64,000 nt of DNA from Escherichia coli (lineage in GTDB: Bacteria > Pseudomonadota > Gammaproteobacteria > Enterobacterales > Enterobacteriaceae), in the NCBI RefSeq assembly GCF_044324875.1, contig NZ_CP172185.1. One strand, given 5' to 3'. Positions within the stretch are counted from its first letter, which is position 1, and each line of letters starts with the position of its first letter. Shown here piece by piece: positions 15,001-18,000 of the stretch. The position numbers were made by a program.

Positions 15001-18000
15001 TCGTCTCTTCCAGAATAAGGAATCCCATGGTTAAAAAATCACTGCGTCAGTTCACGCTGATGGCGACGGCAACCGTCACGCTGTTGTTAGGAAGTGTGCC
15101 GCTGTATGCGCAAACGGCGGACGTACAGCAAAAACTTGCCGAATTAGAGCGGCAGTCGGGAGGAAGACTGGGTGTGGCATTGATTAACACAGCAGATAAT
15201 TCGCAAATACTTTATCGTGCTGATGAGCGCTTTGCGATGTGCAGCACCAGTAAAGTGATGGCCGTGGCCGCGGTGCTGAAGAAAAGTGAAAGCGAACCGA
15301 ATCTGTTAAATCAGCGAGTTGAGATCAAAAAATCTGACTTGGTTAACTATAATCCGATTGCGGAAAAGCACGTCGATGGGACGATGTCACTGGCTGAGCT
15401 TAGCGCGGCCGCGCTACAGTACAGCGATAACGTGGCGATGAATAAGCTGATTTCTCACGTTGGCGGCCCGGCTAGCGTCACCGCGTTCGCCCGACAGCTG
15501 GGAGACGAAACGTTCCGTCTCGACCGTACCGAGCCGACGTTAAACACCGCCATTCCGGGCGATCCGCGTGATACCACTTCACCTCGGGCAATGGCGCAAA
15601 CTCTGCGTAATCTGACGCTGGGTAAAGCATTGGGTGACAGCCAACGGGCGCAGCTGGTGACATGGATGAAAGGCAATACCACCGGTGCAGCGAGCATTCA
15701 GGCTGGACTGCCTGCTTCCTGGGTTGTGGGGGATAAAACCGGCAGCGGTGACTATGGCACCACCAACGATATCGCGGTGATCTGGCCAAAAGATCGTGCG
15801 CCGCTGATTCTGGTCACTTACTTCACCCAGCCTCAACCTAAGGCAGAAAGCCGTCGCGATGTATTAGCGTCGGCGGCTAAAATCGTCACCAACGGTTTGT
15901 AATAGCGGAAACGGAATGGGGAAACTCATTCCGTTTTTGTTTATCGCCTTAGACGGCAAAAGCGCTGTCGCCCACCTGCGCTTGCGCATACCAGGCCATA
16001 AGCTCCGTGGTTCCTGGTTCTCCTTCCGCTGGCGCCCAGTGCGCATAGTCATCGGCAGCCACGGGTTGATAGCCACCGTGTTTTACTTCAAAAATTATGC
16101 CACCGGTATCCAGCGACAGCACGGCATGCCAGGTTCCTGCGGCCATCTCCAGCACCGTACAGGTTTCCCCCAATATCGCCCGATGGGTGACGGTACCCCG
16201 ATCGTCAAAATTCAGCACCACGAAACGACCCCTTAATGGCAACAGTAGTTCGAAGGTGTGAGGGTGTCGGTGCGGGCGCACGTAGGTTCCTGGTCTATTT
16301 CTGGTTTAAAATGGATACCTGATCCTGAACGTTTTCTGCCATCCACGATCCGTAAACGCAATAAACCCTTTGACCATCAGAGTGTCTCATTTGACACTCA
16401 TCACCACGTCGGATGTTGTTACGACCACAGACGCAACAGTAACCTCTGGATAATTTAATCTTCGTTCTTATTTTTATTAATATACTGCGTTATAAAAATG
16501 AGCGATTTTTGATAGTGGTAATTTTATTGTGCTTTAGAATGCTCCCTGGGTAATATAATTTATTAAACAGGAGTGTAAATGTTTCCATTAAATGATCTGT
16601 CGTTAAAAGCTCAGTCGGTTCAATTAAATAAAATCACATCTAATACTGAGTCTACGATAAAACAACAAGATTTAGTATCTGATGATGCAATGATAAATGA
16701 ATTATCAAGTGAGTTAGTCAGTTGTCTTGGAAATGGTAGGTTTACACCAATTAGTGAAGACAGCAAATTACTGAATATGCTGTCAGAACTTAAGTTGTTG
16801 CACTCAGAATATTTCGGATGGGGTGATTATAGTCTCTGGTTTCAAGGTTTCTCGATTTATGATAAGACAGGTTTTATCATGATAGAAAAAAGTCAGGGAG
16901 CTGGTAATCCACCCATTCGGCATACATTAGAGTTTATATCGACTAATATTGCAGAGTTTCTAGACAAGTTAACGAAAATTACAGATGCCAGACTTTGCAA
17001 AGGTTTCTGTGACTGGGCTAATTCAGTCAAAGAAGGCGCATCGAATGACTTCAAAGAAAATGTGGATATAGCATTGGTGAGATTGTTTAAATGTGTTGAA
17101 CTCCACAATAGTAAACTTGACTTAACAGATCTTCACTTGGGGTCTTTGCCACCTCTTCCAGACTGGATTGAGGTGCTTTCTCTTCGTCATAATGGCCTTG
17201 CCACAATACAGATTCCCAAATTCTGCAAAGAATTAGAACTCGATTTTAATAATTATATGGTATTTCCAAAAGTATCCGATGGAATTACCCAGGTCTCCGT
17301 AGATAATAATCTGATATCGCGTGTTGACTCATCTCCGTCAAAGGCTATGAAAATTTTTATTTATCGCAATAAAATATGGTAAATACCAGCAATGCCTGAG
17401 ACTACTAATCTGTTTAATTGTGGCGATAATAAGATAAAAAAATTCAATACTTCCCAAATCATCTGGAGACAGCACGTATGGAGTATAATATTGAGGTTGT
17501 CCCTGCGATACATAGCAATTTAAAATTACTTTTTATAGAATGTTATCCTATTAAAGAGGAGTTTTTAATGCCGTGGACTTTGACAGACATTACCTATGAA
17601 ATATCGCAGCGAAAATATATTGTTACGAATTCCGCTGATTATGATAAATATTCTGACATAGTCAAAAGGGGCGTAATAGATGGTAAGAATTAAATAGTTA
17701 GGCGCAATTGTGTCACTGGAATAGAGGTTTCTTGTGGCGCATGTGGAAGGAGCGTCTAAGGACAAGACATATGCGGCTGGTGATGAATAAAGGCGCAGCA
17801 CGTCGAATGCAAGAATGTGCTGCGTCTGGCTCATGGCAATTCATTATTTTCGCATAGCGTCAATGACAAAAATCGACTGTGTGGATCAAGTTGATAATCA
17901 GCAAACGGTTCGCAATCAACGAAACCATGATTCAAATAAAGTTGATGGCAGGCCGTAAATCCAGCCTGTGTACCCGTTTCTAAGCTCAGGCGATGAAGGC

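Follow-up and report, generated by a model that had tools for sequence, protein, structure and literature searches.

This work describes a β-lactamase gene and its genomic surroundings in a stretch of 64,000 nucleotides (nt) of Escherichia coli DNA (assembly GCF_044324875.1, contig NZ_CP172185.1), referred to below as the window. The window almost certainly carries blaCTX-M-1 on an ISEcp1 unit that has transposed to the chromosome downstream of fliE, where the gene is inherited without a plasmid. The gene is a single open reading frame (ORF) of 291 codons on the plus strand at 15027-15902, running from ATG to TAA, and its product is identical to CTX-M-1 over all 291 amino acids (aa) in an exact look-up against approximately 15 billion proteins. 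The record retrieved is named 'extended-spectrum class A beta-lactamase CTX-M-1 [Enterobacterales]' (WP_013188473.1; UniProt P28585, BLC1_ECOLX); MEN-1 is an alias of the same enzyme. At the DNA level, 876 of 876 nt are shared with annotated blaCTX-M-1 genes from plasmids and complete E. coli genomes, and the identical gene in IncI1 plasmid L008 is annotated as 'predicted by amrfinderplus; identity 100.0%'. The genomic context of the gene had not been addressed in the preliminary description of this DNA.

The gene is part of an intact unit of 3,003 base pairs (bp) at 13291-16293, in which ISEcp1 is followed by a spacer of 80 bp, then blaCTX-M-1 and a truncated wbuC. ISEcp1 is complete (1,656 bp, 13291-14946, plus strand) and is bounded by a left inverted repeat (IRL), CCTAGATTCTACGT (14 bp, 13291-13304), and a right inverted repeat (IRR), ACGTGGAATTTAGG (14 bp, 14933-14946); its length and both repeats are as in eight other ISEcp1 loci, and its sequence shows 100% identity with the L008 copy. 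The transposase gene (13477-14739, plus strand) is intact, and its 420-aa product reaches 329.6 bits with the IS1380 family transposase model NF033539, whose cut-off is 180. At the DNA level it does not differ from the L008 gene for WP_000608644.1.

ISEcp1 lies upstream of blaCTX-M-1 in the same orientation. Its right end contains a strong, outward-facing, sigma-70-type promoter-like site (14843-14872, plus strand) with the arrangement TTGAAA-18 nt-TACAAT, a TG before the -10 element and 10 of the 12 consensus bases. We take this to be the promoter that ISEcp1 supplies to downstream bla genes. The site is predicted to be active toward blaCTX-M-1, which would thus be transcribed from the insertion sequence (IS). 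The spacer between IRR and the ATG (14947-15026, plus strand) contains a Shine-Dalgarno-like AAGGA at 15017-15021, 5 nt before the start codon of the bla gene.

Directly after the bla stop codon, a terminator-like hairpin of 17 pairs (15904-15941, plus strand) separates the convergent bla gene and wbuC remnant. It was detected by direct folding (-23 kcal/mol, z = -5.0, with 0 of 200 shuffles folding equally well) and was not flagged by the consensus terminator scan; a terminator function may be proposed on the basis of this folding model. The remnant itself (15949-16293, minus strand) is a 5'-truncated wbuC (orf477) cupin gene that matches TIGR04366 (cupin_WbuC) with 85.2 bits over profile positions 48-132 only, and its DNA is identical to a wbuC remnant called an incomplete pseudogene by the Prokaryotic Genome Annotation Pipeline (PGAP). 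It was co-mobilised with bla from a Kluyvera-derived segment. The unit ends in a surrogate right end, IRR-alt ACGTAGGTTCCTGG (16280-16293, plus strand), which agrees with the IRR of ISEcp1 at 8 of its 14 bases. The G+C content is ~33% in ISEcp1 and ~55-59% in the bla-wbuC segment, with ~47-55% in the chromosomal flank on the fliE side and ~32-40% in the one on the DUF5503 side.

The encoded protein belongs to the CTX-M family. With the model NF033089 for this family it reaches 623.2 bits (cut-off 570), residues 1-291 covering profile positions 1-291, and the next-ranking family, KLUC, scores under its own cut-off. Class A catalytic motifs, defined as S70-x-x-K, S130-D-N, E166 and K234-T-G, are intact at precursor positions 73 (STSK), 133 (SDN), 169 (EPTLN) and 237 (KTG). 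The product would be classed as a Sec-exported class A serine β-lactamase that is predicted to act on oxyimino-cephalosporins, hydrolysing cefotaxime much better than ceftazidime.

For isogenic constructs, Novais et al. give minimum inhibitory concentrations (MICs) of cefotaxime and ceftazidime of >256 and 4 µg/ml for CTX-M-1, 256 and 8 µg/ml for CTX-M-32, 128 and 2 µg/ml for CTX-M-15, and 256 and 1 µg/ml for CTX-M-3 (PMC2809773, Table 1). The D240G substitution thus corresponds to a twofold higher ceftazidime MIC in both backgrounds, with CTX-M-1 still not below CTX-M-15 (PMC2809773). Because the isogenic ceftazidime MICs are 4, 8, 2 and 1 µg/ml for these four enzymes (PMC2809773), the comparison of cefotaxime and ceftazidime MICs, which had been put forward as a check on the allele, is a weak discriminator.

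An intact gene may nevertheless be silent or weakly expressed as a single chromosomal copy, in which case the isolate would not be a phenotypic producer of an extended-spectrum β-lactamase (ESBL). A single chromosomal copy does represent a smaller gene dose than a plasmid. We consider this outcome very unlikely, as plasmid copies have, base for base, the same promoter, 80-bp spacer, Shine-Dalgarno-like sequence and coding sequence, and no IS interrupts the spacer, in contrast to the ISKpn26 insertion of a CTX-M-32 locus (L004) and the IS insertions of a CTX-M-1 plasmid (L005).

The chromosomal position was established from both flanks. Window positions 1-13290 align to positions 1311-14600 of a locus from E. 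coli strain PS1Phumofeces1 (L006), and positions 16294-25844 align to 14596-24140 of the same locus, so that the flanks abut with a 5-bp overlap. The overlap is the target site duplication (TSD): TCTAT is found on the left at 13286-13290 and on the right at 16294-16298, and is present once in the uninterrupted site (L006 14596-14600). When the unit was removed in silico, the rebuilt site was contiguous in 1,517 complete E. coli genomes. Read from these boundaries, the insertion is a textbook case of one-ended transposition by ISEcp1 with a 5-bp target duplication, in which ISEcp1 moved the unit by using its IRL together with the weak surrogate right end located 3' of the gene.

The insertion point lies between fliE and yedL, 70 bp past the stop codon of fliE (12906-13220), where it borders a 99-bp remnant of an integrase pseudogene. 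It is upstream of a pre-existing DUF5503/EspR-like pseudogene (16579-17693), yedL and yedK. No functional host gene is broken by it. Colinearity of the flanks with the core E. coli chromosome, between the fliR and flhA regions, extends over 61 kb, and the element is therefore chromosomal. No other acquired DNA was found in the window, the remainder of which is colinear with the core chromosome except for the central region of fliC.

The gene could instead be plasmid-borne, with its chromosomal position arising as an assembly artefact through a repeat-mediated chimera at ISEcp1. blaCTX-M-1 is indeed mostly plasmid-borne (891 of the 1,351 group-1 bla matches in complete E. coli genomes are on plasmids), and IS elements are frequent sites of assembly errors. 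However, both junctions are chromosomal, other genomes have them directly joined, and the 5-bp duplication is perfect, a pattern that a chimera would not yield. The unit is also present only once in the window, and identical units at other chromosomal sites indicate that such events are common. We therefore regard an artefact as highly improbable and retain a true chromosomal insertion.

The allele had been called in the preliminary description as CTX-M-1 rather than CTX-M-3, -15 or -55, from five residues. To place the gene within the CTX-M-1 group, named alleles were pulled from annotated records and compared with it base by base. The CTX-M-1 gene (WP_013188473.1) shows 0 aa and 0 nt differences, and the other alleles differ by 1 to 5 aa, so the call is borne out over the full length. 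CTX-M-32 is the closest, with 1 aa (D242G in precursor numbering, D240G in Ambler numbering) and 1 nt (A725G); it shares 290 of 291 residues and has Gly240 where the window has Asp240 (codon GAC). CTX-M-3, from pCTX-M3, differs by 4 aa (V80A, D117N, S143A and N289D; Ambler V77A, D114N, S140A and N288D) and 10 nt. CTX-M-15 differs by 5 aa, the four of CTX-M-3 and D242G (Ambler D240G), and 11 nt. CTX-M-55 differs by 4 aa (D117N, S143A, D242G and N289D; Ambler D114N, S140A, D240G and N288D) and 10 nt, and has Val77 as in the window. These three alleles have 98.7-98.9% nt identity to the window gene and belong to the same CTX-M-1 group. The pattern matches the published relationships, in which CTX-M-1 and CTX-M-3 are separated by four substitutions, CTX-M-15 is CTX-M-3 with D240G, and CTX-M-32 is CTX-M-1 with D240G (PMC3316993, PMC2809773). 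Among solved structures in the Protein Data Bank (PDB), no deposited chain is identical to CTX-M-1; the closest chain departs from the window protein at V80A, D117N, S143A, D242G and N289D, which are the CTX-M-15 positions.

All five motifs quoted for the marker residues were found in the ORF, each with the residue given for it: MAVAAV (precursor position 78) with Val80, which is Ambler 77; HVDGT (115) with Asp117, Ambler 114; LISHVGG (141) with Ser143, Ambler 140; GSGDYGTTN (239) with Asp242, Ambler 240, hence no D240G; and IVTNGL (286) with Asn289, Ambler 288. In Ambler numbering, the gene therefore encodes Val77, Asp114, Ser140, Asp240 and Asn288, together with Pro167 (P170 of the precursor, in EPTLN). 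The statement that these five residues separate CTX-M-1 from CTX-M-3 and CTX-M-15 is correct for CTX-M-15, which differs at all five, and needs correction for CTX-M-3, which differs only at 77, 114, 140 and 288. Asp240 is common to CTX-M-1 and CTX-M-3, and residue 240 distinguishes CTX-M-1 only from CTX-M-15, CTX-M-55 and CTX-M-32. The contrast with CTX-M-3, -15 and -55 taken together does not hold marker by marker: not every position sets CTX-M-1 apart from all three, as Val77 also occurs in CTX-M-55 and Asp240 in CTX-M-3. Moreover, the five markers are insufficient against the many other group-1 alleles (for example CTX-M-58 with P167T, CTX-M-61 or CTX-M-36), for which the full-length exact match is needed.

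That the gene is a close neighbour within the group (CTX-M-32, -58, -61, -36, -3, -15 or -55) has a negligible probability: the alleles are only 1 to 5 residues apart, with CTX-M-32 a single nt away (A725G), and a check of five markers may overlook other positions, but the protein is an exact full-length CTX-M-1 with 0 nt differences from the WP_013188473.1 gene, Asp240 and Pro167 are both present, and the directly measured differences from CTX-M-32, -3, -15 and -55 leave none of these identical over the full length. Judged by its sequence, the ORF at 15027-15902 is blaCTX-M-1, and nothing contradicts the allele.

The non-coding context, as aligned here, independently agrees with the CTX-M-1 lineage. 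The spacer between IRR and the ATG is 80 bp in every CTX-M-1 or CTX-M-32 locus examined; in the loci fetched for CTX-M-3, CTX-M-15 and CTX-M-55 it is 127, 48 and 45 bp, respectively. On the 3' side of bla, the sequence is identical over 392 bp with the CTX-M-1 and CTX-M-32 loci and over only 60 bp with the CTX-M-3, -15 and -55 loci. CTX-M-32 loci thus belong to the same 80-bp spacer lineage and have the same wbuC remnant and right end as the window, whereas the CTX-M-3, -15 and -55 loci keep the same order, with ISEcp1 upstream and wbuC downstream, and diverge 60 bp past the stop codon. Two of the loci with the 80-bp spacer have further insertions between IRL and IRR. In L004 (CTX-M-32, strain MB15), ISKpn26 is located 3' of an intact transposase gene, and in L005 (CTX-M-1 plasmid), IS1 and IS5 are present and the transposase gene is truncated. 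Both retain the spacer; the window copy is free of such insertions and its ISEcp1 is intact.

Some limits apply to the reading of a chromosomal, plasmid-independent blaCTX-M-1. The allele names assigned by PGAP and AMRFinder were taken from annotations of identical sequences. The window spans 64 kb and could formally belong to a very large chromosome-like replicon; PLSDB includes mislabelled chromosome-sized records. The direction from plasmid to chromosome was deduced from the identity of the units, and a resistance phenotype would be expected from the gene.

Copies of the unit are found on plasmids and at other chromosomal sites. A copy without a mismatch over 3,003 of 3,003 bp, surrogate right end included, is carried by the IncI1 plasmid NZ_LS999562.1 (E. 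coli EC-TO143 plasmid 3). In that plasmid the unit interrupts a DUF6404 gene beside the colicin Ia genes with TSD TTATA, whereas in the window it lies between fliE and yedL with TSD TCTAT. The exact unit was also found at at least 10 other chromosomal sites, most with their own AT-rich duplications of 4-6 bp, among them many in E. coli AVS0747 and others in strain 4600 and in assemblies UDGP01000003 and JBLEVV01. These sites are intergenic and mostly AT-rich, and none is the fliE site. One and the same surrogate right end serves at least 12 loci, and every copy ends at the same base. The most parsimonious interpretation is a move of the unit from a plasmid to the chromosome, with an IncI1-type plasmid as the best-matching context. 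The window gene differs from the usual situation of blaCTX-M-1 only in its location, on the chromosome instead of on an IncI1 or IncN plasmid. Being complete, the unit may still be mobile and could in principle transpose again.

Three IncI1 plasmids match the window over 13284-16298, slightly past the unit, and a shared target site was considered. This was rejected, as the plasmid TSD is TTATA and not TCTAT; the extension is explained by chance similarity of AT-rich flanks. In AVS0747 (CP124467.1, from wastewater), one search placed the unit at 13 positions in the chromosome record and another showed 8 distinct contexts (L012-L019); the unit is also on a plasmid, which looks like intragenomic amplification by repeated transposition. 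At two chromosomal loci, L012 and L020, no matching duplication directly follows the 3,003-bp unit. L020 shares its right flank, TAAAAACA, with plasmid L005, and in L012 the unit is followed by a gene with a colicin domain. Such flanks point to longer units with a surrogate end farther out, which would have taken additional plasmid DNA along.

The insertion next to fliE is absent from 5,426 complete RefSeq E. coli genomes. Among these, the only record covering at least 80% of a 5-kb junction query was MLI105 (NZ_CP116929.1, L001), which carries an independent ISEcp1-blaCTX-M-15 unit (6181-9160) between yedK and yedF, a few kb away. ISEcp1 units have thus entered the fliE-yedF neighbourhood on at least two occasions, the strains and the alleles being different each time. 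The 38-nt left junction GGGGCAAACTCACTCTATCCTAGATTCTACGTCAGTAC had no exact match in genome-representative or Joint Genome Institute (JGI) metagenome contig collections, and the ten contexts from the exact-protein look-up are all at other sites. The nearest of the complete genomes has 98.5% identity over 24.7 kb (window 16299-41000), and only 2 records reach at least 99%. Either the host lineage or this recombination-prone flagellar region is poorly represented among complete genomes. We put the chances at about even that this is an unrecorded chromosomal site for an intact ISEcp1-blaCTX-M-1 unit, 70 bp past fliE, in a poorly represented lineage; it is the only new element of the analysis.

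Two features of the flanks stand apart from the unit. Directly 3' of it, the DUF5503/EspR-like pseudogene at 16579-17693 is a leucine-rich-repeat ORF of 267 aa with a 71-aa continuation, resembling a type III secretion system effector. It is frameshifted in reference genomes too, has a weak SspH2-like match (E = 1.8e-4) and, given its position, could receive read-through transcription. Further downstream, the alignment with the reference strain, colinear elsewhere, is lost over the centre of fliC (25844-26758), pointing to another flagellar (H) antigen type.

Nothing about the gene, its product, the mobile unit or the mechanism is new, and public genomes already document this unit in chromosomes. 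An unrecorded site would be an epidemiological detail rather than new biology, and the understanding of CTX-M enzymes and ISEcp1 is unchanged by these findings. The practical value lies at the level of surveillance, where the allele shows an epidemiologist which gene lineage is present. CTX-M-1 is the type associated with livestock and with IncI1 and IncN plasmids, in contrast to the lineages of CTX-M-15 and CTX-M-55. Because of its chromosomal position, the ESBL gene would survive plasmid curing and be invisible in conjugation assays. If the junction is clone-specific, it would mark a lineage in which the ESBL gene is passed on vertically and independently of plasmids. Such a lineage would keep the unit complete and potentially mobile, so that amplification as in AVS0747 could follow.

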